DNA of 64,000 nucleotides from Trypanosoma brucei (Eukaryota), in assembly GCA_000002445.1 (NCBI GenBank), contig CM000207.1, positions 1,504,001-1,568,000 on the forward strand, written 5' to 3'. A program made the position numbers and the translations under genes. Positions 11,666 through 62,244 of the stretch are shown one piece after another (the stretch's first letter is position 1; each line of letters starts with the position of its first letter). Under the pieces are notes generated by a model that made no database searches, was not told the origin of the DNA, and saw only the letters and a program-made list of their open reading frames with translations.

Positions 11666-12479
11666 TTTACTTGCTACACAACCTTTAGACCAAAAAAACC
11701 TGCGGTAAGAGTTGCGGGATCCCTACTTATCTGCTATAGAACCTAACGGTGGAACATGAAGAAAGCGAGCATTTATTCGCGCAGTCAAGCTATGCCACAA
11801 GTGGTTTCAGAAACAAAAAACCTCCGCCACAAGAATGATGATATCAAACCGTGCGGCCGCAAAGTCACTGCAACAACAACCTAGTTTTTTTTAAAAAAAA
11901 AAAGACAAACTAAGTCAATAAACGAATCACGCAGCTCTCTTTCTCTCTGTCGGCTCAGCCAAAGAGTTACGAAAAAATGCTTTAAGATATGCACAAAGTA
12001 AAATTGTTTAACTGCGACCTGAGAAAAACAAAGTTCCACACGAAGGCATAAGTTGAGAAATACGTGAGAAACAAAGTAAGCATAAGACCAACAAACCGTC
12101 GTCAGGGGAAATTAAAGATAAAAACGGAAGGTGGGAACAGTTCTTTGTATACATTACCAACCAACTTTAATTGACGAAAAGATTTACAAACACATGCCTT
12201 GTTTCCAAAGGGAAGGGTGACAAAAAACAGTGAGCTCACACTCCACCATCAAAAAAAAAAGATAAAACAAACTCCAACCCACAGCAACTTCCGATCCCTT
12301 CAAGTCTGGCCGCCTCTCCGAAGCCAATCTAAAATGTACAAGATTCGTTAAGCACCTCCTTCCCTGTGACGAGCTCAAGCACACACGAAGAGCATCGAAA
12401 CTAGGAAATCATGCAAAAATAATAAATTCACGATGAGTAGGTAAAAGCGGAGAAACCATCAATATTAACCGAACAAGCG

Positions 12480-13460: not shown

Positions 13461-14049
13461 ACCCGAACAGCTTGGCAATAAAGCGGTGTGCAAGAATTGC
13501 AGAAAAGATACGGGTGGTTCCTAAGGCGGAGCGAGTGGGAGAAGCTAAACCATTTTATAATCCACACTAAGAATCAAGGCACAAAAAAAAGCATCTCCCG
13601 TGGGGGAAGAGCGTGTTGACGACATTTTCCCGGCCAAAGGGCCCAACCTTATCGACCCAACAGCAGAAAAACTTTCTAGCACCTCGAAGAAGCAACAACG
13701 GTGGGCAAGGTGAACTCAGCGGTGAAAGAAACGACCCCAAGGCAACACGAATACAAAACAGAAAAACTGGAAGAGGCCGAGGCAGGAATGTGAGACCTGG
13801 CTGCCGCGGCACTTGCACCACGGACGTTGAGCACATTAGTTGTAGGCGTCAAAGAGCAGAAGCCAACAAAACGGCGGTAAGCAGATGCTGTTGCGGAAAT
13901 GTACTAAAAGAGGCTCAGAAAGATACGGCGAGCTCCGAGGGTGGAATTATCAGGGGTAACAAACTATAAGTCTAAGTTGTTTGATTACGGAGGAGCGGAG
14001 GTTGACACAGAGTGACGTATACGCTGGAACTGCACCTAGAGAAGATTGC

Positions 14050-15030
14050 ACACACGGAAAGAAATTGTGGAACCTTGTTTGGAAAGAGAGGAAATGCTTC
14101 GTGAGGTTTTATAATCACCGCGTGGAACACGGCGGAATACCCGGGCGGGGGTGAGAAGGGCGGTAAAACATCACTCTCGGGAGACAGAAAAAGCTTGCAA
14201 AAGAGGCGGCGGCAGCCCGAGAAGCGGCCCTTAGAAGTGTTTTCTCCAAGTCGATGAGGGGTTGATTGGCAGGACACTGAAAGGTCACTTTGATCGGTTG
14301 CTTACATCAAAGAAACCGCCGTTTATGCCAAAGCACCAAGCAGTAGACACCAAGTTTTTGACGTTTGGTGAAACAAGGTGGAGAAATGGGGAGACAGCAA
14401 CTGCTTTCATGGATCGTGCAAGAGCGACCGGCTCAATGGATCGTCGGGGGATCACTCACTGTGGTTTTAAATCGCTGCGATGCGCATCTCCGCTTAGCGA
14501 GACGGATAGGACAGTTGCCGCATAATCGAAAATCCAAAATGAAGATGAGCAACGCGTAGCCAGGAGATTTCCTCGACCTTAGGGGTGTGGCGGGAATTTG
14601 TCCTCGAACCACTTCTGGTCGCTGTGATAATGGAAGCATAATAAGAGGCACTGATCGGAGCACAGGGATTAAGCATACCTTCCTTGCAAACGGTCCAATC
14701 GTCATACGCGCCGGCAGAGGTCTAAAAAAATTTTGAGCAAACGCCACGGAGGGAGCCTCGGTTGTGTGCCAATGAACGGTCGAAAAGACCTTTCGTGGAA
14801 ATTTCGGCTGAAGAGGAATGCACATGCTTCGGGATCATTCACGGCAACGCCTAGAAGTCCCATACATATAATAGCTGAAAGAAGGGCCCCAAAATTTCTG
14901 GACTTAATACCTAGTAGGGTTAGGGGGGGGGGCACGGAGGGGCCGCGGGGGATTCACGAAAGAAGCTACGAAAGCTAAGGGTCATCCCCTGAATGGCGGT
15001 TGGGTTGGGAATCGCTACGGTAAACTTAGG
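14050..15030 (-). ncRNA. candidate telomerase RNA (TER) locus; boundaries approximate
   Basis: The region lies in a 6-kb gene-free interval and is transcribed in the same direction as the unit. It contains an exact telomerase template-like 11-mer on the transcribed strand (see feature 14914..14924). I could not delimit a box C/D domain or the exact ends by eye. Confidence 0.25.
14914..14924 (-). other. telomerase template-like sequence 5'-CCCUAACCCUA-3' (1.8 telomeric repeats), preceded on the RNA strand by a C9 run
   Basis: The plus strand reads tagggttaggg followed by g9. The minus-strand RNA would therefore read CCCCCCCCCUAACCCUACUAGG. An exact 11-mer is expected only ~0.03 times by chance in 2 x 64 kb. 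Confidence 0.4.
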
Positions 15031-17759
15031 TTGTTCTTATGTCTTACAGGGGGGAATTGTGCCATGGCATAACTTTCCGGCTGTATTCGTCATCGACTTC
15101 ACAAAAGTGTTCGAGGAGGCGTGCTGGCAGAGGTTTTAGACACAGTAAGTGGAACGCCTAAGTTAGCAGATGGGGAAAACATAGTGAAAGAGGCCAGTCT
15201 CATGCCAATAGTGGGCGCTAAAAACTAAAGAAAGGGCACTGGGCTCCATTATGCCACTCCAGATGAAAGGAAATACCTTTTGAGTAGACCCAAGAAGCGG
15301 GCTTACACGGGATAACGGTGCCTGTTGGAGCATATTCAGGTGTGTGGGTGGGGGGCAGAGAAGTGTCGTGGTATGTTCCGTCGATGGGAGGAACTGCTTG
15401 AGAGGAAGCGTCTCATGTTGATGGAGAGGTCCCTCTTCAGTTGCATGACGCACGAGGGACTGAAAGTGAACGCCTTTGAAAATGGAAAACACACGGAAAC
15501 AGTGAAGACCGCGATAAGCTTTAGGGAAGGTGGCTGTTAGCATTGCCGGGACCCTCTTTCAGCGGTTGTTAGTATTAACAGTTAAAATGGTCTGGGTTTG
15601 GAAGTTGAGTCTTGTGTTAGGATTAACGGTCATGCGGCTATATATATACATATATATTTTTACACGCATTAAACATTCCTCAACACCACTCCCCCAAAGG
15701 TTCCACGTGCCCTTTAGACTCGGCCTCCCCCCCCCAAAAAAAGCATTCCCCAAAACAGCTTTTCACCTTTATTTGTTTGACACATGCACCACGACGATTT
15801 TCCTCTTCTCTCCTCATCTCCGACGCGCTTCGATCAGTTTGTCCATTACCCTACAAATCTCGTCTCAACAGTTATTTGGTGATTCGCATTAATATCCGGA
15901 ACCACGTTAATGCAAACTCACCCCCTAAGAAATGAATTAAAAAAAACTCGCTGCATATTACCTCCCCCCTAGCTCACGTGAACTCCTCAAAAAGATTTGA
16001 TGCCCATGCGGAACTTGTGGCGGTCAGTTCTTCCTTTAGTCTTCGTAGTGTTACCGGCTGTCGTACCGCCGTCCCGCTAAAAGCAAATATTTTAACCAGC
16101 AACACCTCCTTCTCTACCCATCGTCACATTTGCTCCACTTGCCTCACGCACGGTAGCGGTTTGGGCCGCCTTTTCGAGAGAGTGTCGACGCTGCTGAACA
16201 AATGGGTTTCACCACTTGTGCGATAATTCCCATAGCGAGCAGCATTTTGAGTGTTGCTTATTTTTCATTTCCCAACCCGCTAGCGTCCGCACAACTTTTG
16301 ATAGTGCTTTTCGAATCTTGCTCGAGAAACAGATCTGTCGTCACCCTGTTCGGAGCCCTCGTGCACGCGGGCTCCGATGCGAACGCTAAGAAATGTGCGG
16401 ATGCATCTCGACGCGTTGATAATTGCAACTTGTTTCCTTTTGGGTTTGCTGCCGCAAGCTGGGGAGCTGCTGCACTACCTAACGAATTCTGTGGATCCCT
16501 GTTTGGAAGTCATCTTAACAGCGGGTTTAAGCGCCAAACATCTCACTACATTGCATGCGCCGTTAAGCCCCCAATCTCGAGGAAAAACTGCGGCGACAAC
16601 TAAAACTGCCTTTTCACGAGGTGTGTGTATGAACAACGCTTTTTGGTGGAGGCGTTAGGTGTGGAGGCCCGGGAGTGCTCTATAGAAGCCACTTCCCATA
16701 CGCCTCCCCACACGTACAATGCCGGATCCTTCAGGTTATCACAAGAGCAAACCACTATGATGCTACCCGGCACGGTCATACACGCTGACGGCCACCACAA
16801 AAAGGTCGAAAAAAAAAACTTCTTTTTCTCTTGTTGTGACAGTTTCTTTATTGCTCTCCACTCCCACCCTCAGAAGGAACTCGCATTGCCGTTAGGTCAT
16901 CACTTCCAATCTGGTTCCTAACTTAGCAGCGCCACCCATATCATTCGTTGCTGAACCCCGGGAAAGTTGGAACAAGCACCTAAGCAAACAAAATGTAGAG
17001 GGCATACGGTAACTACCTTCACTACTTGCTTCAGAGGGGTTCTAAGAGAAATGGAAAGAGGGAAGTGGATTTGTCGTGTATTCATCTGCAAGGCGTTTGT
17101 GTTGAAAAGGCCATTTAACACTGGTTGTGGGAAAACAAAGACATGCCATCTAATGGTACGCAATCATGTATCAACCGTGGCGAAACAGAGCCATCAGAAT
17201 ACTCGATGGCCACACACAAGGATGCAGTTGTGTGAAAAAAAAACGGAGGGATCTAATGTGAGAGGAGCGAAATAACGGTAGAATGGCATTTGTTTATGCA
17301 TCCACGCAAAGGCATGTTCGGTTCTTCGGAATCTGCAGCCTTCATTTTTCTGCTGTGAGAAGCTGGAGGAATCATGTCTCATTCTTTATTCCTTTCCCCC
17401 CCTTATTTCCTTTTTCCTTTCGGTATAGCATGGCTTCAGACTGCCTAACTCTTTGCTTCATCATTTGCTTCTCCATGTTTCACATTTTGCGCAGGCTAAA
17501 CAACAGCCGCTTCCCATTTATCTAAGTTCAACGAAAATACATGTGCGCCAACAACGAACATTACATTACATTAGGGATGGAAACAGGCCCCTCCTTCCTT
17601 TCTCCTCCCCTCCACAATACATACATTGGACATTACGACTAGAATTGAAAGGATAATATATATATATATATATACTTTTCTGTGTATCTCTTTCTCTCCT
17701 TGTCTACTTTTATACACTCCTTGCTTTATCAGCTTAACAGCAACGGAACGACGAGACTA

Positions 17760-36266: not shown

Positions 36267-37337
36267 CTACTTGCCACTCTCCGACAATCCGTATGTGACC
36301 AACGCCTCGCCCGCCTTAACGATATCCCCTGGTTTAACCGCTACTGACGCAGTTTTTGGAATGTCCAAAACCAGCACGACGGAGGAACCCCAGTAAAAGG
36401 TAGAGAGGAGGTCCCCTTTTTTTGATGTGGCCGCCCTGCTATAACACCTGTGTACAGCGTATTCCGGGGGAGCTAAAAAATTTGTTTTGATGCGTTGATC
36501 CAAATGCAGTACGATACGCCCAGTTAGTGTGCCGCCCACAAGGGCCAACCCCATGTTCCCACTGGCACTGTGCTCGTCAGTCCAACTTCCAAGGAGAACC
36601 ACCCGCTCGTTTAATGGAAGGACAGAGGGAATCCAGTGATATCCCGCCGGTGTGTGCGGTAGTAAAGCACCGGGTATATACACGACTTCCTTACAAGTAA
36701 ACAAACACGGCGTTACCACATGATGATAATCTTGGGTTCGCAGATGTAAAGCAACAGCAATCCGCCGATTCCCCTCTGCCACGGTTCCCAGCGGGCTATG
36801 GAAAAGCCGTCTTACGCTATATGTTACTCCCTTAACCTGCAGCAACTGATCGTCTACCACATCCTCCTGGACTGAGAGCACAACACCATCGGAAGGCATA
36901 ACAACAGGTGACGTGGCAACTCGTCGCTCGCCATCTTCCCACCTACGAACGAAGAATTCTTGCAGTGTTTTATATTCCCGTTCTTTTCCCCGCGGCGCAT
37001 CCATACCGTACCACCAAATGATTGCCGCAATAACTGCACGATGGAAAGAAGACGGCAAACATTCATTCTCACTTATCCTTCCGCAGATGTGCGAAATATA
37101 GTTGAAGGGGAAAAGCATTAGCATCTCCAACATTCCAACAGAACACAAGCGAGTTCCCCCCTCGGGGTGACGTGTTGCCTCCCATGCGGCAAGTTGGTAC
37201 CGCCCACCGACGTAAACTGCGCCACCAATGATCGCACCACCAAAGAGGTAGTGATACAACCAGCGCCGCATCGGGTTTGTGAAGGGTCTCGTTGTGTCAT
37301 TCTTGTAGAACCGCAGTTGTCGTGTGAGCGAAGCCAT
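36267..37337 (-). CDS. PSD: phosphatidylserine decarboxylase proenzyme
   Basis: The 356-aa ORF starts with ATG. It has an N-terminal TM/mitochondrial targeting region. PSD blocks are present: FFVRRW...PSDGVV, LHLRTQDYHHVVTPC. The C-terminal FYWGSSVV matches the autocatalytic LGST cleavage site. Confidence 0.7.
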   Translation of the reverse strand: MASLTRQLRFYKNDTTRPFTNPMRRWLYHYLFGGAIIGGAVYVGGRYQLAAWEATRHPEGGTRLCSVGMLEMLMLFPFNYISHICGRISENECLPSSFHRAVIAAIIWWYGMDAPRGKEREYKTLQEFFVRRWEDGERRVATSPVVMPSDGVVLSVQEDVVDDQLLQVKGVTYSVRRLFHSPLGTVAEGNRRIAVALHLRTQDYHHVVTPCLFTCKEVVYIPGALLPHTPAGYHWIPSVLPLNERVVLLGSWTDEHSASGNMGLALVGGTLTGRIVLHLDQRIKTNFLAPPEYAVHRCYSRAATSKKGDLLSTFYWGSSVVLVLDIPKTASVAVKPGDIVKAGEALVTYGLSESGK

Positions 37338-38256: not shown

Positions 38257-41200
38257 TTACTCACCGTCACGAGCGAGCAGCCGCTTGACAACGTAGCTAG
38301 TGATTGGCCAGAGTCGCTGCTGGTCTGCCTCACAAAGACTTGAAAAGCCTCGTATTGTCCCCGCGCAATATGATGAACCGCACAGGCAAACAAAAGGGCT
38401 GTTCATTACCCACTCTGTAGTACAATAGTTGAATGTAACCATTTCCCCTTTCGAAATTTCCCTCAGTGTCACAAACCGAAGTCTGGTCTTCTGTTCATTT
38501 ACCTCAACTTGCACATTCGGGTCACAGTGGTGAGCAATGCACTCCGCACCCTCACCAAAGAGAAGGTGCCTACTCTCACCCACACAAATGGTGTACATTG
38601 TGGGAAACGGGACAACAAATCCAGACACATCAAAAAGGACGACCCCCTTCTTGATGAATGTGCTTGCATAGGCCGTCTGGCCCATGTCTCCGTTCTGACG
38701 GATTTCAATTAGGGGTGATGTTGACTTAACAGTCCAGCCATCGCGCATGGCCTGCGCCCGCACGGGAGGTTCACACAAGTAAAGGTTTTGTTGCTTAGTG
38801 TCCTCTTCCATATGACAGAATCCGAGGCAATGCTGAGAGTACGCTCGAGGAAATAGTGGTTTCATATCATATACGAAGTAATTCATATTAACCGTTAATA
38901 GTTCACCCGCTTCAATGCTGCGCAGCGCCAGGAAGCGGCCTTCCACCAGCACGGTGTTCCCTTCCTCCTTATGTTGAATGATGTACCCATTTTCACCAAC
39001 TGCAACCTGTACTGGTTGAATGTCAATGTTCGTGCACTCCAATAGCACCGTTTTGCGCGCGACAGGGCTCACCGCGTATAACATTCTTGACTGATTGACA
39101 TCCAGGACGGGTGGTAGTCTTACAGACGCAGTTAAGCCGGCCAGTCGACGCATTGCAGGCGTAATGTACCTTTGAAGCATGGACCGCTGCGCGCTTGAAA
39201 GGAATTTGAACCCACGAATATTGTGCAAGCAGCTGGAACTATTACACTTACATTGGAACGGGCTGTGCAGCTCCCATTCTGTCGTCACGAAGTTCGCCGT
39301 CACGACCTCCCCGACGGCGATGTCTCTTATGGTTTCAAACTCTATCGCCTCATTTAAAGCATCCACGCGTATACAAGTGTTTGGATCGCAACTGTGGGAC
39401 ACGAACTGCGCACCGCCAGAGGGAAGGAGGTGTCTGCGTTCCCCCAGTTGCAACGTGAGAGGCGTTGGGAATGGCAAAGAACGTCCCTTTGTGGCGAGCA
39501 AGCGAGTGCCGGCCGCAACGCGAGTTTTGGCAATAACCTCCAAGCCGGCAGTGCAGCTGCGGAGTCCAATAAGCTGAGAGTCAGAGCGACTTGTGAAACC
39601 ATCCCGTATTGCAGCAGCGCGCACGTCCGGCTGCGCGAAAACGATTAGTGCCTCCTTATCTTGCTCATCCAACCATTTGAAACCTCGAACCTTGTGCGGC
39701 TGAGCAAAGCGGCAACACTTGCACTCGATCTCTTCTGGAAGCGAGTAGCTCAGGCAATTAAGGTTAACGTTTAGTTCATCACCGGCAGAAACAGTACGTA
39801 GCAGTACGACCCTCTTCTCAATGAGCGCCGCGGTTGGAGAGCAGTGGTGTTTGAGGCGAACTCCATCAATGTAAACGAAGTTGTCTAAAACTTCCACTGC
39901 TGAGTATTCGATGACGACTGTCCCTGCCACCATTTCGGTTGCCACATGTACCGTCCCCTCGTCGCATACCATAAGCCTTTTGGAAGCAATCTGTATCCAG
40001 GCACCTTTTGGGTTACTTTGAGTGTCCGCCACAAGGGACTTGATTGCTGTGGATGTCACGTTCCACAGCTTCTGACGCGCGTCATTGCCAAGGTGTTTAA
40101 ACCCCCCTATCCATCCGTAACATTTTTGCGATCCGCAGACACACATGAAAGGGTACTGCATATCCCATTCCGTCGTGAGGTAGTTAAATGATATGACCTC
40201 ACCTTTCCGAATATCTCGCAATGCAATGCACTCGATTGTCCTCGCAGTGTTGTCTGTAAGAACGCGTGTGTTTGGGTCGCAGCTGTGCGCAAGACACTGC
40301 GCTCCGCCACCAAAAAGAAGATGCCGCCTGTTGCTTAGAAGAATGGTATGCATAGTGGGAAAGGGTAAGGTAAGGCCATTCACGCGAAAGAATCGGGTTC
40401 CCTTTTTAATGTCAGACTTTGCGAATGTCGACTGCCCCATTTGCACATCCGCCTTCACTTCCACAAGTGGGGAAGAACTTTTAACGAGGAAACCATCCAA
40501 AACAGCGGCCTCTCGAACATGTGGGCTCGCACAAATCAGCTCAGCATTCTTCATCTCGTCAGTGAGGCCTTTGAAGCCGCTCACTTCTCCAACGCAGTGT
40601 TCTCCTTTGCAGTTGCACTTAAATGACGTAGTAGTGTAGCAAAGGTGGTTGATGTTGATTGTTACAGCTTCACCACGCAGCGAAGCCCGGCGAAGAACAA
40701 CACTTCGCCCCAGCAAAACAGCGTTGGCAAAGCACGAGTGCTTGACGCGTATATCATCCAGTGCAACCTCATCACCAATTACCTGAACGTCTGTGACGTT
40801 GAAGAGCTTAACCCCAGACGTCGTGTCACACATTAACCGAAGCTCCCCCGATGTCTCGTGAATAGAGATAAGCGAGTCATCAAGGGATGCCAACACACCA
40901 CGGCGTTGGCGCGAAAACATAGACTTCACTCCCCTTGCTGCGTGCGGCCACAAACGTAGTTGGGCCCTTGCGTCAAGATACCGAAAACCTCTGATAAGGC
41001 CATAGCAGTTAGCAGTACCACAGATGCACCTGAAGGAGGATGCTAACTCCCATTCAGTAGTGAGGTAGTCGTAAGTTAACATCTCGTCCAGTTTAATATC
41101 ACGCAGCGACAGGCAGTATCCGCTCTTTGTGGACCTGTCCATAACAACACGCAGGTTAGGTTCACAACTATGTGCGATGCAGCGTGCCTGATCCGTGAGA

Positions 41201-42606
41201 AAAAGATGCTCGTCATCCCCAACGAAAATTGTGTGTTTGGTTGCGAAGGGCAGTACCACGCCTCGCAGATCAAACACCTGTGTACCCTTGGGGATGAAGT
41301 CGCCGGCATAAGTTATTTCACCCATTGTTGGGTGCCTCCGTGTCACTGCCAGAGAATTACTGGAGCTCCAGGGACAGCCATTCTGCAGCGCCTCCAGAAA
41401 CACGGGCTGTTGTGTGAAAGGCAAGAGCTGCTTCTTTTCCTCATCACTGAGCCCACGAAACCCTCGAACGGTATTTGAGCATTTCGGGGAACCACATTTG
41501 CATTCGAAAGGCGCAGGAAGCTCATATTGAAGTGTGGAGAGGTTGAGAGAGAGTTGGTCCCCAGGTTGAAGCATCCGTAGCGACACAAGCCTGCCATCAA
41601 GAAGAACTGTATTGGCATCACAGCTGTGCGCAATGGACAAGCTGTCAATGACGACTCGGTGCGGGCGTATATCAAATCTGTCTACCTGCAACAGTACCGT
41701 GCCCGGTGGGACAAACTGCTGGGTGGCGATCTTACCATCAGAGGTCAAAGTAAGCACCGTTGACTTCTGCAGCCCAGCGAGTGATGCAGTTGGGGGAACC
41801 ACCGCACTGTGTCTCTCCTTGATGGCGGCACACACACTCGGCAATAGTTGCGCTTGCTGCTCTGATCCAAGGTGGCGAAATCCACGGATAATACCGTAGC
41901 ATGAAGTAGTCTTGCAGGCGCAGGAGAATGGATGCGCGATATCCCACTCGGTGCACAGGAAATTGCGTGTGAGTTGTTCTTCTTTTTCAATAGCTCGCGT
42001 AGCAACAGCGGATATGGTTGTTCCACTAATTTCAAGTTGAACGTTTGGTTGGCAAGAATGCCGGACGAATTCCACACAACAAGAGGGTCGCAAGTACTTC
42101 TTACCGGGTAGTTCAATTGTACCTTGTGCAGGGAACGGCAGAAGAAGCGCTGTACTAGTGAATACGATGCTTCCTGCTTCGTGACTGCAAGTTGCTAGGG
42201 TTGCAAAGCCAGAGTCTGGCTTCCGTACGATTTCCACACTCTTTTGGCAACAAGTGGCGATGAACCCGTCCGCAAGTGCCTGTTGGCGTACCTTCTCATC
42301 TGCGTAGGGAAATAAACGTTGTTGCTCGTCTTCTCTAGCGTTTTTGAAAGTAGAAGCAGCGGAGCCCTGAGGAAGCCTTGCGCCGTCATATATCACCAAA
42401 CAAGGGTTGACCACCACAAACTCATCTTTATTTATCTCCTGCGTGGCGATAAGGAAGTTATTAATGATGGTTGCGTTAAATTCTTCGCCTAGTGCTACGC
42501 GGCGTTCGTCATCCAGGACAAGTTCGCCGTTCCCAAATGTATAGTTTGTGGGAATAGGGCATATCACCTCACCGATCTTGAAGCAGAAATTGGCTTTCAT
42601 TACCAT
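38257..42606 (-). CDS. giant poly-SET protein: about 8-9 tandem SET + post-SET methyltransferase-like modules
   Basis: The 1449-aa ORF starts with ATG. The SET C-terminal motif xHSCxPN/AN occurs 8 times (RHSCQPN, AHSCDAN, AHSCEPN, KHSCFAN, AHSCDPN, KHHCSPT, SHSCDPN, AHHCDPN). Each is followed by TTEW and a post-SET cysteine cluster FxCxCGSxxCxGxIRGFxxL, e.g. FSCACKTTSCYGIIRGFRHL, FECKCGSPKCSNTVRGFRGL, FRCICGTANCYGLIRGFRYL. Modules alternate between two subtypes (LPFPT...HSCxPN and HSCxAN...LxxNxxxLxY). Confidence 0.75.
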   Translation of the reverse strand: MVMKANFCFKIGEVICPIPTNYTFGNGELVLDDERRVALGEEFNATIINNFLIATQEINKDEFVVVNPCLVIYDGARLPQGSAASTFKNAREDEQQRLFPYADEKVRQQALADGFIATCCQKSVEIVRKPDSGFATLATCSHEAGSIVFTSTALLLPFPAQGTIELPGKKYLRPSCCVEFVRHSCQPNVQLEISGTTISAVATRAIEKEEQLTRNFLCTEWDIAHPFSCACKTTSCYGIIRGFRHLGSEQQAQLLPSVCAAIKERHSAVVPPTASLAGLQKSTVLTLTSDGKIATQQFVPPGTVLLQVDRFDIRPHRVVIDSLSIAHSCDANTVLLDGRLVSLRMLQPGDQLSLNLSTLQYELPAPFECKCGSPKCSNTVRGFRGLSDEEKKQLLPFTQQPVFLEALQNGCPWSSSNSLAVTRRHPTMGEITYAGDFIPKGTQVFDLRGVVLPFATKHTIFVGDDEHLFLTDQARCIAHSCEPNLRVVMDRSTKSGYCLSLRDIKLDEMLTYDYLTTEWELASSFRCICGTANCYGLIRGFRYLDARAQLRLWPHAARGVKSMFSRQRRGVLASLDDSLISIHETSGELRLMCDTTSGVKLFNVTDVQVIGDEVALDDIRVKHSCFANAVLLGRSVVLRRASLRGEAVTININHLCYTTTSFKCNCKGEHCVGEVSGFKGLTDEMKNAELICASPHVREAAVLDGFLVKSSSPLVEVKADVQMGQSTFAKSDIKKGTRFFRVNGLTLPFPTMHTILLSNRRHLLFGGGAQCLAHSCDPNTRVLTDNTARTIECIALRDIRKGEVISFNYLTTEWDMQYPFMCVCGSQKCYGWIGGFKHLGNDARQKLWNVTSTAIKSLVADTQSNPKGAWIQIASKRLMVCDEGTVHVATEMVAGTVVIEYSAVEVLDNFVYIDGVRLKHHCSPTAALIEKRVVLLRTVSAGDELNVNLNCLSYSLPEEIECKCCRFAQPHKVRGFKWLDEQDKEALIVFAQPDVRAAAIRDGFTSRSDSQLIGLRSCTAGLEVIAKTRVAAGTRLLATKGRSLPFPTPLTLQLGERRHLLPSGGAQFVSHSCDPNTCIRVDALNEAIEFETIRDIAVGEVVTANFVTTEWELHSPFQCKCNSSSCLHNIRGFKFLSSAQRSMLQRYITPAMRRLAGLTASVRLPPVLDVNQSRMLYAVSPVARKTVLLECTNIDIQPVQVAVGENGYIIQHKEEGNTVLVEGRFLALRSIEAGELLTVNMNYFVYDMKPLFPRAYSQHCLGFCHMEEDTKQQNLYLCEPPVRAQAMRDGWTVKSTSPLIEIRQNGDMGQTAYASTFIKKGVVLFDVSGFVVPFPTMYTICVGESRHLLFGEGAECIAHHCDPNVQVEVNEQKTRLRFVTLREISKGEMVTFNYCTTEWVMNSPFVCLCGSSYCAGTIRGFSSLCEADQQRLWPITSYVVKRLLARDGE

Positions 42607-43415: not shown

Positions 43416-45881
43416 CTAATGGGGTGGCTCCGCGTTGAGGGCGCCACAAACAAGCGCTGCGCCGTGGCATCTACAATAGGCAGAACGTTCATTAGTTGTG
43501 TTAATGACTGATTGTGCCACCTTGCTGTGACGAAATGCGACGTGGAGCCGCATGGGGTTATCGGGATGAAAGTAAGTGAATACTACACTGAATGGCGTCC
43601 TAGAAAGGGCCGCCTGTACATAAACAGTCGGCATGGGGAACAGCACGGGCTCATTGACAATGTCTGCAGCGGAAGTTGACTCCATATCTCTGGGTTCCAC
43701 GAAAATGATCTCTGTCTCTAAGAGAAGCATGTTCATTGGCTTTCCAATTGGTACTACTTTTGAAGCTTTCCCAGGAGGTACAGCTACTTTTACAAGCTCG
43801 CAGCGAAACCGCGTTGTGGTACTTGATAGCCTGCCCACGGAGGCACCGACGCGGTGCTGAACTCCGTACTTCCTTAATCGAAGTATGAAACTGTCTTCTT
43901 GTTGCATCGTGTCATACAACATCCGGCGCACGCTTGCCCACATCATAAACTCTCTATCCTTCTGTTCTGTTGGACTGTGTGCAGCCCGGTGGTGGTACGA
44001 GACGAGGTCCCCAATCACCCCCTGCACATCAGCTAGCCGCTGCGGATGAGAAGTAAGTTGCCGCTGACAGCACAACCGCTCCGTTGAGGAGTAGCCACCA
44101 TACGGCAAAAGCGGAAGGAGCAGCGCCACCTCTCGGCCGAGTTTATCAAAGGAGTACTCCACGCGGGGCTCTGCCCCATTACATACGCGCTCCATCTCAA
44201 GAAAAAGGGTTTCGCAGGCCGACCGAAAGCAGTCTTTATTAGCCATTAATAAGCCCCGGTTCCCGCTGTTTTCATCGCTTCTACAATCCTTGCGACGAAT
44301 TAAGGTGTCGTAGTACGCCAGTAGCCGGCGCCTTAAAACTCCCTCGCAAAGGGACGCCAAAGCGACAGAAACTGTGCGCCGCTCTCGGGATTCTGGCACA
44401 AAAGTTTTTAGAAGGTTTAACGATAATTCGAACGCGGACAGTCGTGTCAACAGACTACACGTAATAAACCTGTAAAGTGCACCCACCAAACAAATACACC
44501 ACGGTTCCCGATGCGCGGTGCTTCCCATGCTGCTCTTCACATCCCTCAGGAACGTTTCATAGGACGGCAAAGCATCCACCGCCGTGCCCATACAACACTC
44601 TGCCGGGTCTTTGTCTCCGTCAAGCTGCTTCTTGGAGGGGGAAACCTCCACTTCGTTGTCGTCTCGGTTGCTGATTCGATCAGCAGTGCCGATTTCATTG
44701 CACAATCTCTCATCACTCATGTTTCCCCGCTCGTTGAATGCCCCAACATTCACGATCGCTCCAAGCAGGACAACACCAGCAGAGAGACAATGCATACACC
44801 CCTTACTAAGGATGCGCCCAAGTAAACACTCAGCGGGGTCTGAACCCTTAGGACCGAGCAGTCCGTCGAACAGCACTTGGTGGATCCTGTTTTCTTTCCC
44901 CAGGAGAAGCCACCGAGTAATCACACAGAGTGCAAGAGCGGGTTGCATAACAGGAGCGAATGCTGACCTCGTTACGGTTGAAGACTTCATTGGTGCCTCA
45001 ATCAAGGCCAGAAGAGGGTCAATGATTCCCGTCACCAGCGCAGGTCTGAGTTCCCTCTCCACAACCGTGGAAGACACCGCGAAGAGGTCGTTCACATAAA
45101 GTAAGTCATCCAACACATCCTCCGTCAGGCTTCTTATAGCGTCTACAGTGGGAAGTGGTGTTGCATCATCAGCATCACCAACGGCGTCGTGGTAGCGGTT
45201 CACTGCCTCCGAAAGTATCCCAATCTCAAGCCAAACATGTTTCGATATGATTCGAAGAATGTCTGGAAGGGCCTTCTCCATAAAAGACGTCAGAAACGTA
45301 CTCTGAAGCCGCGCAACGCTAATTACCACTTGCCTGGCGGCTCCACGGGCCATACGGTCGGACGTGTTGATCAGCTTGGCCGCGTAGTCAAACAAGGGGA
45401 ACACACCCAGCTGTCGGATGAAAAAGAATTGAACCGTGGTTTCATCACATCGCAGCGCAAGCGACTTCAAGAAAGATACATATACCGATAAAAGTTCATC
45501 GTCATTTTCATTCAGGTCAATGGATATCATCTTGTTAAGGTGATTTTTACTGCAGATATAATAAACGTTCTCCTTCATTGTAAGGTTGTGCAGCATCAAG
45601 GTAACAAAACGAAGCACCTCCGCTTTCACATTGGACGGTGACTCCACGTTTGTTACTATACTTTCCAGCGTGGTTATCATGTCTAGCTCAAGAAAAACAT
45701 CAAATGACGCATTGTTTTTTTTGTCGCCCCAGATTATCGCCTGTGCAAGCTCGCGCAAGATTTCAGAAATATTGTTGGTGGTGAAGGCTTGTGACTCATC
45801 TGTGGTTTTCAATGCCATACAGAGACGGCTGACATTTTCCTGAGAAAACTTTTCGTAGCTTTGGTTCTTAGCTTTCTGCAT
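43416..45881 (-). CDS. CLEC16A-like protein (FPL-domain family)
   Basis: The 821-aa ORF starts with ATG. Its N-terminus is collinear with human CLEC16A: ILRELAQAIIWGDKKNNASFDVFLE (cf. ITEILIWGDQNDSSVFDFFLE) and LLSVYVSFLKSLALRCDETTVQFFF (cf. IMAYYISFLKTLSLKLNNHTVHFFY). Confidence 0.7.
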   Translation of the reverse strand: MQKAKNQSYEKFSQENVSRLCMALKTTDESQAFTTNNISEILRELAQAIIWGDKKNNASFDVFLELDMITTLESIVTNVESPSNVKAEVLRFVTLMLHNLTMKENVYYICSKNHLNKMISIDLNENDDELLSVYVSFLKSLALRCDETTVQFFFIRQLGVFPLFDYAAKLINTSDRMARGAARQVVISVARLQSTFLTSFMEKALPDILRIISKHVWLEIGILSEAVNRYHDAVGDADDATPLPTVDAIRSLTEDVLDDLLYVNDLFAVSSTVVERELRPALVTGIIDPLLALIEAPMKSSTVTRSAFAPVMQPALALCVITRWLLLGKENRIHQVLFDGLLGPKGSDPAECLLGRILSKGCMHCLSAGVVLLGAIVNVGAFNERGNMSDERLCNEIGTADRISNRDDNEVEVSPSKKQLDGDKDPAECCMGTAVDALPSYETFLRDVKSSMGSTAHREPWCICLVGALYRFITCSLLTRLSAFELSLNLLKTFVPESRERRTVSVALASLCEGVLRRRLLAYYDTLIRRKDCRSDENSGNRGLLMANKDCFRSACETLFLEMERVCNGAEPRVEYSFDKLGREVALLLPLLPYGGYSSTERLCCQRQLTSHPQRLADVQGVIGDLVSYHHRAAHSPTEQKDREFMMWASVRRMLYDTMQQEDSFILRLRKYGVQHRVGASVGRLSSTTTRFRCELVKVAVPPGKASKVVPIGKPMNMLLLETEIIFVEPRDMESTSAADIVNEPVLFPMPTVYVQAALSRTPFSVVFTYFHPDNPMRLHVAFRHSKVAQSVINTTNERSAYCRCHGAALVCGALNAEPPH

Positions 45882-55968: not shown

Positions 55969-58900
55969 TACTTTCTTATTTAATTTTAAATTTGCACCTT
56001 CTTACTATTTTTTTTTTATCTGTATGTTTGTCCGTATGGTTTGATTTCTTTTTCCCCTTCCCTCCGTAGGCACACCGGCTGAAAATTACAACGATAATAA
56101 AGTGGAGTAAAAAAAAAGAAAGAAAGTAAAGTCAGAAATTGGCCGCAATAATAATAATAACGAACAACAACAACAGCAACAAAAAAAAAATAATTAAAGA
56201 CAAAAACAACATATAACCATGGAAATTTTGGGACAGATGTAAAGAAAAGATATTTAAAAAATTAAATTAAAAAGAATAGCTCCACAAGGGAAGAATGCGT
56301 ATCAGAATAAAAGGTACACAATACCAATTCTCCTAACGGACGAAACCACATCAAAAACATTCCTCCCTCTCTCTCTTTCTCTCACATTTTATCCCAACTA
56401 ACACATAACATAACAATACGTAAAATATTGTACGACATTACGTAGTTGTGACACCTTTTCATGTTGTTGCGATGCTCGCAAAACTCCTATTGTTTTTTTT
56501 AAAAACATTATGCCATGATTTTTCCTTTCCTATCCTATCCTATTTATTTAATTATTTTTAAGTTGTTGCTTATCATAAGGTGATATTATTCCCTTTCAGG
56601 CGCATTCGACTCCTTCAGAAAAAAGAAAATGAAAAAGAAAGAATGTGAGTTCAGCAGTACAGGACGAAAGTAAGAGCACGCAGATAATTGAATTTATTTT
56701 TTTATTTTTAAAGAAAAATAATAATTGAGAAACTCAACGGTGAGATATTTTTGAACAAAAACATTTCAGTTGGAAATAAATTCGAAAGAGTTGTTCGTTC
56801 ATTTTCTTTTTTTTTCCTTTAAAATGACCTTTTTCGTGTTCCCCATTTTTAATTTCCTTCCTTCCACTGTTTTTCTTTTTTCCTTTTTCACTTATCTATC
56901 TAATTTTGATCTTCTTTAGGTTTACAACAAGCGGAAAGGAATTCACATGAGGAACACACTCCCCCCCCCCAATACACCACACACACACAAAAAAAAAAAT
57001 GTAAATGTAAATATCACGAGTTGAAAGCGGTTCCGCAATGGAGATTGTAAGAGGTGTAATTCCAATAAAACAGAACGAACCAAAGGGAAGTTTGAACGGT
57101 GTCCATACGGTGTTATTAATGTTGCTTTTATAGAATTTGAAAGTTAAATAAATAAATAAAAAGACGGAAGAGAAGTTGAAAGAGTTTTCTTTCCTTTTTT
57201 TTGTAAAAAAAAAAAGGAAAAAGAAGAAAAAGAACCACACTGGGGAGGTGGGCGACGGTGTTTTACTTTACTGTACCCCTTCCTGCTATTTATTCCCTTC
57301 ATTGTTCCTCTCATCACAGTTTGTAATAACGATAACAATAACAATACAAGTAAACATGATAATGATAAGTGAATCAATATCTCTTCTCAAATAATATTTG
57401 TGTACAAATAAAATTGATGAAAGCAAAAAGAAAAAAAAGAAGGGGAAAAAGAGGAAGAAAGAACCTATACAAGAGTCACCAGGTAGTAAAGCTTCAGTGC
57501 ATTCTTTTTGTTTTTTCTTCTTTTTTCTTTTCTTTTAAAAAAAAAAAACGCCGGAAAAAAAATGTTGTTGAGGTGACTTCCACATTTTTCATCGTTTTGT
57601 TCCCCCCCCCCCGTAATAGATAAAACACACACACACACACACTTTCCCCCGTCTGTTATATTTATTTATATAACTCCATTTGAACACTCGTTTATATGTG
57701 CCAATATCTTCTTTTTTTTTTTCTCGTCCTCTCTTCACTCCATATTTTGGTCCTCACACCGCCCCTCACCTTCTTCGTAGCAAAACTAAAAACAAAAAAG
57801 AAAAACAAAAAAAAAAATTTGGTTCGAAAATGAAAACTTAATTTAATTTAATTTAATTTGCAAAAACAAACAAACAATAAAGAGATAAACCCTTTTGGGC
57901 AGCATTATCGATGAGAATAATACTAATAATAGTAATAAGTTTTCTCATCAATATATGTAATAGCAGCGGAATATGATATAATGGTACAAAGCGAGTGCTG
58001 TATCATTTCAAAAAGTGAATATATATATATATATATATTTATAATGAAAAACAAAAACCGAAGAAAAATTAATGGCAACGTGTGACCTCTTAACCACTTT
58101 TCTTCATTTCACTCAAAACTTTCACTCATTTCTTCCCCCTCCTCCAATACATCCACACACAAGTGAAAATTAAAAAAAAAAAGAAAAAAAGAGGAAATAT
58201 ATATATAACGGATCAAATAAAGCAGCCAAACAGCACCAAAGAAAAGTAAAAAAGAAAAAAAAAGAATGTTTTATTTCATTATTACCTGCTGCCGTATCAT
58301 CCACCTCCTCTTATTTTTCTTTTTTACAATTTTCGTTCCTCTTACATGAGAGGTTGTTACACCGAAAGTATAAACAAAAAAAAAAGAAAGAGGGGTTTCT
58401 CTTTTGTGTGAAAATATAAATACGGAACGTCAAAAATAAATAATTCGATTGAAGCAAAGTGTTTGAAGGAGAAACAAAAACGAAAAGTAGAAAAAGCAGC
58501 ATTCATCCAATAATCCAAAAAGCGTTTTTGTATAAGTCAGAAGAGAACAGAAACTGGGAAAATAACTGTTTGTTTTTTTTTTTCCTTTCTTCTCCTTTTC
58601 AATTATATTCTATTAAAATGTTGTTATTGTCAAAGTTCCCTTTTTTTTTTATAGAAAAAAATTTCCATCAGTACAAATGCAAAATGACAACGGCAACATC
58701 ACGAACAGACACCCAAAGGAGGAAAATTGTGATCGGTTAAAAATGCGATGAAAATTAAAAAAAAAAATTCTCCCACTCTGTTTTCTTTACTTTCTTCTTC
58801 TTCTCGTCACGCCTTTTAAAAAAAAAAAAGAACTATTGGTGTTTGCTCTTTTCTAATAATAATAATAATTATTATTATTATTTTGGTTTATATTCCCCAC

Positions 58901-59164
58901 TACTTCTTTATATTCATTCACTCATTTTTATTACCTCCCCCTTATTATAATAATTAGTATTATTATTATTATTATTATTTGCCTCCTCTTTGTGGTGCAT
59001 TTGTAATTGCAAGTAGCCAACACCACCACCACTACCACCCTTCTTTTTTTTTTCCTTCTTTTTTTCCCCCTTTTTTTTTGTTTCCACCAGTTTGTGTAAG
59101 TTCCAGTTCCCTCATGCAATATTTTTCCCAGACATATTTTTCTTTTCTCTTTCTTTTGTCAAAC

Positions 59165-59198
<34 letters not shown>

Positions 59199-61866
59199 AA
59201 ATATGTGCTTGAGCATTTGGATACCGCGTGCAGTGGACAAAACAGCGCTAATGTTACAACTAAGGAAAAGTTGGAACGCATTGAGGGGAGGAAAAAAAAA
59301 TTTTTTTTTTTAAAAAGGAAGAAACCGCAATAAATAAATAGATAAATGGAGATTGTTTTTTTTTTCCTCCTGCTTTAAAAATCATTCACTTGAAAATTTA
59401 AATGCGTGCTCGTGTGCGCTGAGAAGCAAAAAGAAAAACAAAAAAAAAAGAAAAGAAACAGATTAATTTTTTTTTTAAAAAAATGAGAACTAGTGGAAGA
59501 AGAGGAGAATAAAAAGGGACGAGGGAGTATAAATTAAACAGAAATAAATTGTTGATTCATGCTGAAAGACAAAAAAAAAAAGAGGGAAAAGAGGACCGAG
59601 CAATACGCGTGTAGAATTTATACACAGCATACATAAATATAAAACCAGTACAAAAATAAACATAATGACAAAAATAACTGTAGCAATAAAAGCAATCACC
59701 ATCATATTCAGTTGTGACTTCAGCAAAATTATTACGTTCTTCTCTTTTTTTTGTTTTTCCTCCATTTTATTCGTTGCTTTGTTTTACATTTCTTTGTTAC
59801 ATTCTTTTTCTTTTCTCCCTCTAACGGTTACCGTGTCCGTTACCTTTAAAAAGAGGAAAAGAAATCAAAAAAAAAAAAGTTGAAAGAAACCGCAAACGAA
59901 GTCAAGACATTTATAACCAAAGAAAAAAAAATGAAACTTTTTTTTTTTAAAAAAAAGATAGGTACCACTAGCACTGGAAGTATAGAATAAAAAATATATA
60001 AAATACGTAGCACTATTCATTTTTCCTTTTTTTTATTCTCATAATAATCAAAAATAAACAATAATTTTCTTCTCACTTTGTAACGAGAAGAAAGAAGAAA
60101 AAAAAAAACAAAATCGCCCCACAGTTCATCCATAATGGAATGGATGGTAATAAAAGGGGCTGCAGTAAAAAGAAAAGGAAAAGAAAAGAAGAAAACAAAA
60201 CAAAACAAAAAAGCAAATTTAATATAACTTCCCCATGATTCCTTTTTTTTCCCCCTTTTCTTTATTTCTTTATTTGATTTTGTTTTGCCACACGCAATTC
60301 CTCATTTTACTTTCCTTCTCCCATTTCCTTCTTTTCATCATTTGTATTCATTAATGAAAGTTTAATGAATACAAAAGCGTAAAAAAAAAATAAATAAATA
60401 AGAAACAAGAGATTAAAAAAAAACAAAGAAGGGGAAAGGAAAGGAAAGGAGAGGAGAGGAAAAGAAATGCAACAAAATAAATAAATTCGTAACAAAGAAA
60501 GTAAAAAAAAAAGGAAACCACGTACTAAAAGAGACGTCACTAACACCACTGTCAATAAATAAGCACAAAGATATAAAACTATATAGTGAATATATATATA
60601 TATATAGGTATATACAAATATACATATGACCAAAAAGGAGAGGGGAAGAAAAGAAAACAGCAGAAAAATAATATAAAAGAAAAAAAAATTTTAATGCGTG
60701 CACGCGCGAAAACAAAACAGACGAAATGGAAAAAAGAAAAAGGAGCCAAGAGTTCTCTGGGAATAAAGTTCCAAAATCTTCAGCAGCGAAAAAAAAAAAG
60801 AAGCAGGAATGACGGAAGGAGACCGCCTCAATGCTTCATCTCTACACACTAATAAACGGTGACTTTTTTTTTAAAAAAAATTACTCTTGTGTATTCTTTT
60901 CAATTAAGTCTTTGTGTAGGATAAATAAATACGTGCGGAATATATGTTTATTTTGCGTATAATTATGCTGCTGAATTTACTCTACCCCCACTTCGCTTCA
61001 CTCGCTATTTTTCCAGTCTGTATTTTATTTCATAGTACCTTTGCCCCTCCTTTTTTTTAAAAAAAAGGGTCATCTGCTTTTAGCTTTCTCGCGTTTTTTT
61101 TAAAAAATTTTATTTCCTCTCAGTTTCTAATTTTTTCCCCTCCTTTCTTCTTCTTCTATACATTTGTTTTTAATCCTTCCCTATTTGTGGCATTACTGCA
61201 CATTTTCCTTTATATATTTTCCCCTTTAAACTAATCCTGTTTGCTTGTTGTTGTTGTTGTTTTTTTTTTTTACCACCTGAATAGATCATCGTTCGATGGT
61301 GAGCCCATTACTTCGCACTATCAAAAAAATGCCACTAAAAAACCAGCAAGGAAAAAAAATTAACAACAGGGGCACGCCACAGTATTTTAAAATATATTCA
61401 CATAATTTTCCTTCATTTTTTCCTTTCCCGTTTCTTTTTTTTTTAAATTCTCTCACACTGCTCGTCTCAGTTCGTCAATTTTTTTTTTCGCTCTTCTTTC
61501 CATTTAACTCCTTTTTTTTTTACTTTTCCTCCTCCCTTTTTTCTTTTTTTATTTCTAACATGCCACACCTCTCAAACGGCTATGATTATCATTGTGATTC
61601 TCTCCTTTTTACTATACCATCTTCATAAATGGAACAAAACAAAACAAAAAAAGTGAAAATAGTGAAGTAACGAAAAAAAAAAGTAAAAAAAGAATGAACT
61701 GACTTTCACATCATCATATGTACTTGAAGCATGAACCATTTTGCCTTTTTTTTTTTGCATTGTCTCTTTCTCTTTCTCTTTGCCAAGGGCCTTCATGTGA
61801 AGAAATGTTTTTTTTTCCTTCTTCTTCTTCTTTCTTTCTTTTTTTTTTACTTTTTTTTTTTCCACA
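55969..61866. repeat. ~5.9 kb low-complexity gene-free tract (alternating poly-purine and poly-pyrimidine blocks, poly(A)/poly(T), (TA)n, (CA)n, (AAT)n); probable giant 3'UTR/intergenic region downstream of the CCCH zinc-finger gene
   Basis: Every ORF in this span translates to low-complexity K/F/L/S/E strings; none has coding character. Examples are (AT)12(GT)5 at 59165..59198, (AAT)n near 58861..58980, and C10-11 runs at 56961 and 57605. Confidence 0.7.
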
Positions 61867-62244
61867 TCACTTGGCTACCCACTCATTAGGGTCCTCACCA
61901 TGAGAGAATCGACAGTTGCGGCGGTTGCAACGACTTCTTAAATGATGTCTGCAAAGGGAAGACGGAGACACCTTCGAATTCCCTGCTGCCGGTTCCACTG
62001 AAGCCTCCTTCGTGTAACCATCGCCACTCGTCCCAAGGAGTAGAACAGTAGTCGACAGATTATTGTTAGGCATCATAAGCGGCCGCACCACCGGCGGGAC
62101 GGGAACCGCAGCCCACATGTAAACGCATTGAGGAACGACTGGAGATGTTTGTGGTGGGGTTGGGGGAAGCGGGTTATACATCATGGGTGCCGCAAGAAAG
62201 AACGGTTGTGTCGGCTGAGGTTCTGCTGCACTGGGGAAGATCAT
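61867..62244 (-). CDS. small CCCH-type zinc-finger protein (proline-rich N-terminus, single C-x7-C-x4-C-x3-H finger)
   Basis: The 125-aa ORF starts with ATG. The C-terminal finger is CRHHLRSRCNRRNCRFSHGE. The N-terminus is Pro-rich (PLPPTPPQTSPVVPQ). Confidence 0.6.
   Translation of the reverse strand: MIFPSAAEPQPTQPFFLAAPMMYNPLPPTPPQTSPVVPQCVYMWAAVPVPPVVRPLMMPNNNLSTTVLLLGTSGDGYTKEASVEPAAGNSKVSPSSLCRHHLRSRCNRRNCRFSHGEDPNEWVAK

Follow-up and report, generated by a model that had tools for sequence, protein, structure and literature searches.

An alternating array of ten SET-derived modules in the Trypanosoma brucei protein SET28

The gene and its product

The 64,000-nucleotide stretch of Trypanosoma brucei DNA analysed here (contig CM000207.1, positions 1,504,001 to 1,568,000; hereafter the window) carries at 38257..42606, on the minus strand, a gene whose product proved to be an array of SET-derived modules. 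An earlier note on this DNA had reported a 1449-residue open reading frame (ORF) at this place, and we indeed find one uninterrupted minus-strand ORF of 1449 residues plus stop codon. The encoded protein is an exact sequence match to Q38DZ4_TRYB2 / XP_827306.1 of T. b. brucei TREU927. Q38DZ4 is the product of Tb927.9.10100 and is listed as "SET28" in supplementary table S1 of Staneva et al. 2021 (PMC8559703), where it is one of 29 putative SET proteins tabulated, has the domain entry "SET" and appears among putative chromatin factors. According to the same table, SET28 is cytoplasmic both in bloodstream forms (yellow fluorescent protein (YFP) tag) and in procyclic forms (TrypTag N-terminal tag), and RNA interference target sequencing (RIT-seq) detected no fitness loss (PMC8559703). 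Going by these catalogue data, cells express SET28 in the cytoplasm and can do without it in culture. Literature searches on Tb927.9.10100, its accessions and tandem or multiple SET domains returned nothing on SET28 beyond this catalogue table. The gene as such is already catalogued; we found no description of its alternating pseudo-SET/SET array, of the unit structure or of the relatives with one, four or five copies of the unit.

The concern that the ORF might prove broken or mis-assembled was not borne out. Identical or near-identical proteins of 1447-1449 residues are present in T. b. brucei, T. b. gambiense, T. equiperdum and independent Logan assemblies. In addition, an orthologue search recovered collinear full-length proteins in 12 species besides T. 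brucei. The resulting 13 orthologues, 1444-1510 residues long, all have the same ten modules and provide the set to which statements on conservation refer; the species concerned include T. vivax, T. grayi, T. cruzi, Leishmania, Leptomonas and Lotmaria.

Modular architecture and age of the array

The motifs that had been quoted for this protein (HSC, TTEW and the post-SET cluster) were all found in SET28. A motif scan yielded eight H[SH]Cxx[NT] motifs, five TEW, seven CxCx4C...GF clusters and eight GF[RKS]xL anchors, the spacing of which alternates between ~140 and ~158 residues. We divided the protein at these anchors and compared the modules pairwise by BLASTP. The cutting gave nine modules, all aligning full-length, in the order A1-B1-A2-B2-A3-B3-A4-B4-A5. 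Pairs of A modules share 32-48% identity (E 4e-28 to 4e-58) and pairs of B modules 22-32% (E 2e-7 to 5e-21), a divergence too large for inter-module pairwise identities to inform on the history of unit duplication; matches between A and B modules are limited to the C-terminal ~68 residues. Module repetition is far above chance, and the two subtypes alternate strictly, both in these comparisons and in mapping with hidden Markov models (HMMs), just as the earlier note had claimed.

The N-terminal 90 residues, which we initially read as an extension of A1, were reinterpreted upon HHalign comparison with B profiles as a truncated tenth module, B0 (probability 97.5%, E 8.6e-12, against B1-3; 98.3%, E 2.4e-14, against all B). 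They align to B columns ~46-140, that is, to the C-terminal two-thirds of the B profile, so that the beta core stands at the very start of this first B. Residues 1-90 of the orthologues are matched by B HMMs with scores of 16-30 bits; the T. brucei sequence is matched by the B4 model alone, at 8 bits. The architecture of SET28 is B0-A1-B1-A2-B2-A3-B3-A4-B4-A5, five B-A units with B first, and since the chain opens with B0 and closes with A5, the unit is B-A. The features are as follows, with the basis of each assignment in brackets (BurB is a bacterial methyltransferase discussed below).

38257..42606, minus strand: whole ORF, Tb927.9.10100 / Q38DZ4 / XP_827306.1, SET28 (ORF and exact sequence identity)
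42337..42606, minus strand: B0, residues 1-90, truncated degenerate B-type module, probable pseudo-SET, without N-terminal helices, HSC motif or zinc cluster (HHalign)
41869..42336, minus strand: A1, residues 91-246, SET/post-SET, RHSCQPN (Pfam SET E 5.2e-9)
41449..41868, minus strand: B1, residues 247-386, probable pseudo-SET with HSC and CxCx4C; NL, no TTEW, LPFPT loop deleted (HHalign, AlphaFold2, Foldseek)
40975..41448, minus strand: A2, residues 387-544, intact SET/post-SET with AHSCEPN, DY, TTEW and CxCx4C (Pfam SET E 1.4e-6)
40564..40974, minus strand: B2, residues 545-681, probable pseudo-SET with HSC and CxCx4C; NI replaces NY (HHalign, motif table)
40090..40563, minus strand: A3, residues 682-839, intact SET/post-SET, best BurB match (Pfam SET E 3e-9)
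39670..40089, minus strand: B3, residues 840-979, probable pseudo-SET with HHC and CxC...PH (Cys3His-type ligands); NL replaces NY (HHalign, motif table)
39199..39669, minus strand: A4, residues 980-1136, SET/post-SET (Pfam SET E 3.3e-6)
38809..39198, minus strand: B4, residues 1137-1266, degenerate module, probable pseudo-SET, without HSC motif or zinc cluster (HHalign, conservation)
38335..38808, minus strand: A5, residues 1267-1424, intact SET/post-SET with AHHCDPN, FNY and TTEW (Pfam SET E 1.1e-8)
38257..38334, minus strand: C-terminal tail, residues 1425-1449 plus stop codon, equivalent to the helix that follows post-SET in every module (module alignment)

In the region of the C-terminal tail, the alignment with BurB reaches the equivalent 'LGNDARQKLW' segment. 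Individual A modules are ~158 residues long and B modules ~90-140. This layout refines what the earlier note had proposed. Its count of 8-9 modules becomes ten with the truncated B0 included, and its two-domain ancestral unit stands, at exactly five B-A copies rather than about 4.5. The modules had been taken for the C-terminal cores of SET domains only; they are complete SET domains of ~140-158 residues. The single degenerate copy mentioned there corresponds to B4, which is degenerate in every species, but the truncated B0 makes a second one.

Any repetitive ORF invites the suspicion of a mis-assembled or collapsed repeat, or of a chance reading frame. Running Tandem Repeats Finder over the SET28 DNA gave no tandem repeat; at the DNA level there are only short direct repeats of 60-76% at a spacing of 864-891 nt, which equals one B+A unit. 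Identity between modules at third codon positions is 23-35%, i.e. saturated. Taken together, the saturated third positions and the lack of a DNA-level tandem repeat indicate that the duplications are ancient, as had been supposed, and exclude a collapsed-repeat artefact. Besides, the same protein is found in four Trypanozoon assemblies as well as in the Logan assemblies, the proteins of the 12 further species are collinear with positionally orthologous modules, and the tagged protein has been detected in cells (PMC8559703). An artefact of any of these kinds has a negligible chance of being the explanation.

The A modules

The Pfam SET profile matches the whole protein at 149 bits (E 6.6e-44) in five stretches, which are the five A modules. 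When scanned singly, the A modules all exceed the cut-off of 22.4 bits, with scores of 27.9-37.7 bits. The assignment of the repeats to SET/post-SET folds therefore withstood the Pfam check for the A modules, and the B modules were recognised as SET by HHalign and Foldseek (see below). In the rest of SET28, Pfam detected no reader, AWS/pre-SET or other chromatin domain; NCBIfam contained no model for either A or B modules. A weak Pfam SAF match was dismissed as a 12-residue chance match.

All five A modules have the motif R/A/S-H-S/H-C-x-P-N, in which His, Cys, Pro and Asn are invariant and the leading Asn of NHSC is replaced by Ala, Arg or Ser. The post-SET CxCx4C zinc cluster is invariant in A1-A5 and also in B1 and B2. 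Each of the five A modules has the active-site Tyr (ELxF(D/N)Y) in the 12 species compared with T. brucei; in T. brucei itself it is found in A2, A3 and A5. The typical A-module motifs are MGQ, LPFPTxY/HTI, xHSCxPN, FNY-TTEW and the Cys4 zinc site, and those lining the active site are near-identical in A2-A5, and in A1 of most species. In A2, A3 and A5, H-S/H-C, P-N, N-Y (D-Y in T. brucei A2), TTEW and the four zinc Cys are retained in 13/13 orthologues. Invariant columns make up 35% of A3 and 40% of A5, compared with 11-21% in other modules, and A5, the most conserved module, is 64% identical between T. brucei and L. infantum. From this pattern we infer that the A modules are catalytically competent.

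Phe takes the place of the active-site Tyr only in T. brucei, namely in A1 (region of residues 212-222) and A4 (region of residues 1102-1112). In both modules the Tyr is still there in T. vivax, T. cruzi, T. grayi and every one of the Leishmaniinae examined. The two Phe residues may result from relaxation particular to this lineage or from an altered product specificity.

The B modules

Pfam searches with isolated B1-B4 returned no SET match, only noise (NtA and KH_6 at E ~0.2). Profile comparison by HHalign was far more sensitive. A profile of B1-3 from 13 species matches the profile of all A modules with a probability of 99.4% (E 5.5e-22) over 137 columns, and B4 matches both A (96%, E 4e-9) and B1-3 (99.5%, E 2.6e-23). 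In a search of PDB sequences, the B-only profile produced 37 matches, all of them SET enzymes, with BurB first (1.5e-4).

The catalytic elements of the A modules are missing from B. The position of the catalytic Tyr is occupied by Leu, Ile or Met in every B module in 13/13 species, TTEW is absent from every B module in all species, and a deletion of ~10 residues in each B, seen as a gap in the HHalign alignment with A, removes the LPFPTxYTIxL loop. This segment aligns with BurB residues 65-76, which include Arg70, His72 and Thr73. Zinc ligands are retained to different degrees: B1 and B2 have an invariant HSC and CxCx4C, B3 has an invariant Cys3His-like set, and B0 and B4 have none. Even so, B4 is conserved across all species despite its degeneracy (NMNFFVYDM...FPR), and between T. 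brucei and T. cruzi identity amounts to 49-56% for B1-B4 and 47-50% for A1, A2 and A4. Judged by this conservation, the B modules are still constrained and are not decaying linkers. Since they have neither the aromatic residue of the active site nor the TTEW strand nor the substrate/SAM (S-adenosylmethionine) loop, they are very probably conserved pseudo-enzymes. Of the options left by the earlier note, a protein with many dead and live SET folds is thus the one favoured by the data: across 13 species the A modules keep the active-site motifs that the B modules have lost. As to which modules retain the catalytic Tyr, a point raised in the same place, A2, A3 and A5 do, T. brucei A1 and A4 have Phe, and every B module has Leu, Ile or Met.

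With half of the modules clearly degenerate, one may ask whether SET28 as a whole is mainly a non-catalytic scaffold, whose A and B modules bind protein, SAM or methyl-lysine in the manner of MLL5 and SET-24. Inactive SET proteins are already a known category, none of the A modules has the NHSC Asn, decay has gone further in A1 and A4 of T. brucei, and the RIT-seq screens gave no fitness phenotype. However, A2, A3 and A5 keep their active-site and zinc motifs in 13/13 species, and A3 and A5 are the most conserved (35-40% invariant columns), a pattern expected of live sites. Moreover, the B modules display, within SET28 itself, what relaxed catalytic constraint looks like. We consider a mainly non-catalytic protein unlikely.

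Comparison with BurB

The best match of SET28 among PDB sequences is BurB (9l4t; E 4.1e-15, ~33% identity over A3, residues 724-848), with KMT2, ASH1L, SETD2 and EHMT far behind (E 1e-6 or weaker). BurB of Burkholderia thailandensis (PDB 9l4t/9l4v) is a methionine S-methyltransferase (PMC12542666) and the sole solved relative of the 'NY-x-TTEW ... PFxCxCGxxxC' type. SET28 is a member of the SET superfamily, of its small BurB-like, or "TTEW", branch. We used the sequence alignment between BurB and A3 to map the residues known from the BurB structure (PMC12542666), with the following result.

BurB Arg42-Gly43-Ala44 (SAM gate): A3 Met723-Gly724-Gln725
BurB Arg70 / His72 / Thr73 (substrate and SAM loop): A3 Thr751 / His753 / Thr754, within LPFPTMHTI
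BurB His93: A3 His774 of AHSCDPN
BurB Tyr124: A3 Tyr809 of FNYLTTEW
BurB Cys-rich post-SET: A3 CxCx4C

In BurB, Arg70 and Thr73 contact methionine and His72 contacts SAM (PMC12542666). At the position equivalent to His72, A2, A3 and A5 have His or Tyr in every species and A1 has Gly or Ser in all species; in A4 the residue has been lost in Trypanosoma and is Tyr in most Leishmaniinae. His93 is conserved in the A modules. Mutation of Tyr124 to Ala leaves BurB nearly inactive, and Y124F keeps >60% activity (PMC12542666), so the Phe in A1 and A4 of T. brucei need not inactivate these sites. Overall, BurB and A3 share a domain of ~160 residues, xHSCxPN, an aromatic D/N-Y, the CxCx4C post-SET and the helix that follows it; the loop His is likewise common to both (LHT/MHT). 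BurB is dimeric in the crystal and tetrameric in solution (PMC12542666), and this oligomeric state parallels the paired modules of SET28. The differences are equally clear: BurB is a single bacterial domain of 172 residues from a secondary-metabolite/dimethylsulfoniopropionate (DMSP) pathway, whereas SET28 combines ten domains, half of them degenerate, in one eukaryotic chain. As for the DMSP/malleicyprol context of BurB, we found no relevant neighbours of SET28, the adjoining genes being a phosphatidylserine decarboxylase and an 821-residue ORF.

BurB being the best relative both by sequence (E 4.1e-15) and by fold, the A modules could themselves be small-molecule methyltransferases acting on methionine, another amino acid or a thiol, with the array serving to raise the local concentration of active sites. 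BurB grips its substrate by main-chain contacts, so that the sequence leaves room for a similar pocket in SET28 (PMC12542666). Furthermore, the NY-TTEW-PFxCxC signature is kept from bacteria to Capsaspora and Mesostigma, which suits a universal small substrate. On the other hand, BurB is the only solved member of the branch, so a top match to it says little about the substrate, and the two differ in the substrate strand (TTEWDMxxPF in A modules vs STEDVLM in BurB) as well as at Arg133 and His138. The remaining structural neighbours are all protein-lysine methyltransferases, and a multivalent chain of 1449 residues with scaffold modules is hard to explain for a diffusible substrate. Such an activity therefore seems to us improbable.

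Predicted structures

AlphaFold2 models were built from alignments of kinetoplastid modules only, 26 sequences each. The model of B1 has a predicted local distance difference test (pLDDT) score of 85.3, exceeding 89 over the beta core. A Foldseek search with this model put BurB at the top (E 4.5e-6, TM ~0.55), with NSD2, ASH1L and SETD2 also among the top matches; all of the top 50 matches were SET enzymes. The two-module construct B2-A3 was modelled with a pLDDT of 93.1 and a predicted TM-score (pTM) of 0.87; the five models are of equal quality, ranging in pLDDT from 92.6 to 93.1, no segment falls below 70, and the linker is ordered. For B2-A3, Foldseek again returned BurB first (E 8.4e-10, TMt 0.70, 31% identity), and NSD1, ASH1L and MLL1 were also among the top matches. 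Judging from these models, both A and B adopt the SET beta-fold. The pTM of 0.87 for a two-domain chain further suggests that B2-A3 forms one body in which the mutual orientation of B and A is fixed.

The structural neighbours NSD, ASH1L, SETD2 and MLL are histone enzymes. Together with the Pfam SET assignment and the tabulation of the gene among putative chromatin factors (PMC8559703), they could point to a chromatin writer, that is, a multi-headed histone lysine methyltransferase marking several histone sites. However, SET28 is cytoplasmic rather than nuclear, by YFP in bloodstream and by TrypTag in procyclic forms (PMC8559703), and its Pfam profile includes none of the reader, AWS/pre-SET or other chromatin domains. 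In addition, its nearest relatives are small stand-alone SET proteins of bacterial type. A role in writing histone marks is thus very unlikely.

Distribution and evolution

All 13 orthologues share not only the ten modules but also the truncation of B0 and the degeneracy of B4. Among the top 12 matches of each module, 73-100% are modules from the same position in other species. The modules are thus positionally orthologous, which means that the five-unit array predates the trypanosomatid radiation. Partial arrays were found in Strigomonas, T. conorhini, Bodo saltans and Trypanoplasma (Cryptobia) borreli.

At E<1e-3, an exhaustive search with the A-module profile revealed 7818 proteins, of which 1864 pass E<1e-10 and 47 pass E<1e-30. 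Most of the matches are single-domain SET proteins of 150-190 residues from metagenomes; named relatives of this kind come from a Stellaceae bacterium, Capsaspora (CAOG_00526) and a Woesearchaeote. Several matches correspond to one B-A unit on its own. We did not take the ~300-residue proteins with two matching stretches wholesale as the ancestral unit, since several of them lie on contigs of ~1 kb and may be fragments. Completeness inside the contig was checked for four environmental proteins, P0032, P0037, P0061 and P0218. Two of these are stand-alone B-A ORFs of 306 (P0032) and 292 residues (P0037), and P0061 (~300 residues) is a further example. The fourth, P0218 (L006 1181-4633), is a complete relative of 1150 residues with four B-A units; like SET28, it has a truncated first B and a degenerate B ahead of an HHC-type last A. 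In yet another arrangement, an N-acetyltransferase domain of the RimJ/RimL type (Acetyltransf_3) is fused to one B-A unit, giving GNAT-B-A proteins of 521-579 residues (P0047, P0039, P0214, P0215). The gene for P0047 (L004 8001-9740) is clustered on one strand with eukaryotic housekeeping genes, among them those for a proteasome ATPase, an E2 enzyme, a kinase, an ABCD transporter and NOG1. This cluster looks like a kinetoplastid polycistron, and it is from such gene context that the origin of the environmental B-A proteins was deduced. By its domain composition, the GNAT-B-A fusion would be a combined acetyl-/methyl-transferase and a paralogue of SET28.

Stand-alone B-A proteins, the four-unit P0218 and the GNAT-B-A fusions all indicate that B-A is the unit of evolution, with a copy number of one, four or five; P0218 with its four units shows that this number varies between lineages. 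Tandem fusion is not limited to this unit. The protein Mv09622 of Mesostigma viride (P0024, 1415 residues) has four tandem modules of the TTEW family and a fifth distant one; all of its modules keep NHSC, FNY, TTEW and CxCx4C and look live. Likewise, in several environmental A-A proteins (~300 residues) all copies look live. Mv09622 and the A-A tandems have in common with SET28 the tandem duplication of a small TTEW SET domain, but there is no alternating dead partner in them, and they probably represent independent duplications. Tandem fusion thus seems to be recurrent in this branch of SET proteins.

Proposed function

Considering these results together, we lean, with moderate confidence, towards SET28 being a multivalent cytoplasmic methyltransferase with built-in pseudo-enzyme partners. 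In this scheme, each B-A unit would correspond to a SET dimer that has been fused and become asymmetric, in which the dead B half may support or position the live A half, and five such units on one chain would make a multivalent cytoplasmic methyltransferase. The oligomeric state of BurB and the recurrent tandem fusion both point to a domain that works in pairs. The viral SET protein vSET also acts as a dimer. The most likely chemistry would be methylation of protein lysines on a non-histone cytoplasmic substrate; lysine is favoured since the structural neighbours, BurB excepted, are all lysine methyltransferases. The near-identity of active-site motifs between the A modules suggests the same chemistry carried out several times. 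Accepting this, the five A heads would all catalyse one reaction at one type of site, making the protein multivalent rather than multi-specific; five different specificities, one per A module, are less likely for the same reason. The B-A unit might then be a cis analogue of the enzyme-prozyme pairs of trypanosomes. More tentatively, SET28 might be a true cis-prozyme array, with B an obligatory activator or positioner of the adjacent A, the five heterodimer-like units acting jointly on a conserved target in the cytoplasm, and the number of copies (1/4/5) tuned by kinetoplastid lineage; this is possible, and we would not put it higher than that.

Several considerations weigh against a multivalent methyltransferase. 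The canonical Asn of NHSC is absent in every A module, and of the BurB residues that contact SAM, Arg133 and His138 are not conserved (Tyr818 and Val823 in A3). Given the Phe in A1 and A4 and the loss of the His72 equivalent, fewer than five sites may be fully active in T. brucei. The closest characterised relative, BurB, methylates free methionine and not protein (PMC12542666). The rigid packing of B against A is predicted from a single measure, the pTM, and from a B-A construct only. The function is not essential in culture, as there was no fitness loss in RIT-seq (PMC8559703), and our search of the literature found no enzymatic, SAM-binding or substrate data on SET28 or its orthologues.

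Genomic neighbourhood

Immediately downstream of SET28 and on the same strand, at 36267..37337 (minus), lies a gene for phosphatidylserine decarboxylase (TIGR00163, E 2e-36), the product of which has a motif of the WGSS self-cleavage type; its presence agrees with a position on chromosome 9. The upstream neighbour, at 43416-45881 (minus), is the 821-residue ORF, for which NCBIfam gave no match. Two further regions of the window stand out by their lack of ORFs of at least 200 residues. One is a stretch of ~6 kb at 56000-62000, where G+C content is 0.29-0.32 vs ~0.48 elsewhere. It is rich in short poly-T, poly-A and purine-rich low-complexity tracts and has minus-strand genes on both sides; long untranslated regions (UTRs), a degenerate element or a chromatin boundary may account for it. 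The other, also of ~6 kb (11700-17700), is located inside a dense array of minus-strand genes. The skew of A over T is unusually strong (0.31) and the GC skew positive at 12-16 kb, and no tandem repeats were found in the region; it could be a degenerate retroelement or consist of very long UTRs.

Relation to known systems and significance

To our knowledge, SET domains occur almost always once per protein, and they are among the best-studied methyltransferase folds. SET28 has ten SET-derived modules per chain, in strict dead-live alternation across the trypanosomatids sampled and partly in Bodo and Trypanoplasma. Its A modules share with the stand-alone SET proteins of the TTEW type both the sequence FNYLTTEW(D/F)M..PFxCxCGxxxCxGxIxGFxxL and a domain of ~150-190 residues. 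The stand-alone proteins consist of a single domain and keep the canonical NHSC Asn, whereas the kinetoplastid A modules have AHSC and a characteristic LPFPT loop and always stand behind a B module. There are precedents for individual aspects of this design. MLL5/KMT2E, C. elegans SET-24, SUVH9 and the SET-like domain of TTLL12 are SET folds without activity, and G9a-GLP is a case of SET domains working as a pair. However, proteins of the MLL5 and G9a-GLP kinds are nuclear chromatin proteins with single SET domains, pairing in trans, while SET28 is a cytoplasmic alternating array.

In trypanosomes, deoxyhypusine synthase is one case of an enzyme-prozyme pair. Others are AdoMetDC (S-adenosylmethionine decarboxylase) with its prozyme and PRMT1 ENZ/PRO (10.1101/776112, PMC6221367). 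Like SET28, the AdoMetDC and PRMT1 pairs combine a dead and a live paralogue of one fold in the same organism and within SAM-related enzymology. They differ in being separate polypeptides, with activation shown biochemically; in SET28 the partners are fused in cis, five-fold, and activation is hypothetical. Clear module borders and the residue map provide handles for mutagenesis and for comparing the enzymology of B-A with that of A alone. The architecture is specific to the parasite lineage, but the protein is dispensable in culture screens, which makes its value as a drug target doubtful. Beyond trypanosomatids, SET28 points to a large, barely characterised TTEW-type branch of small SET proteins that spans bacteria and protists and whose one studied member methylates a metabolite, not protein. 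If true, a cis-prozyme array would extend the prozyme principle of trypanosomes to SET enzymes and from trans to cis. SET28 may also be regarded as a natural experiment that shows oligomeric enzymes giving rise to pseudo-enzymes and the latter being kept.

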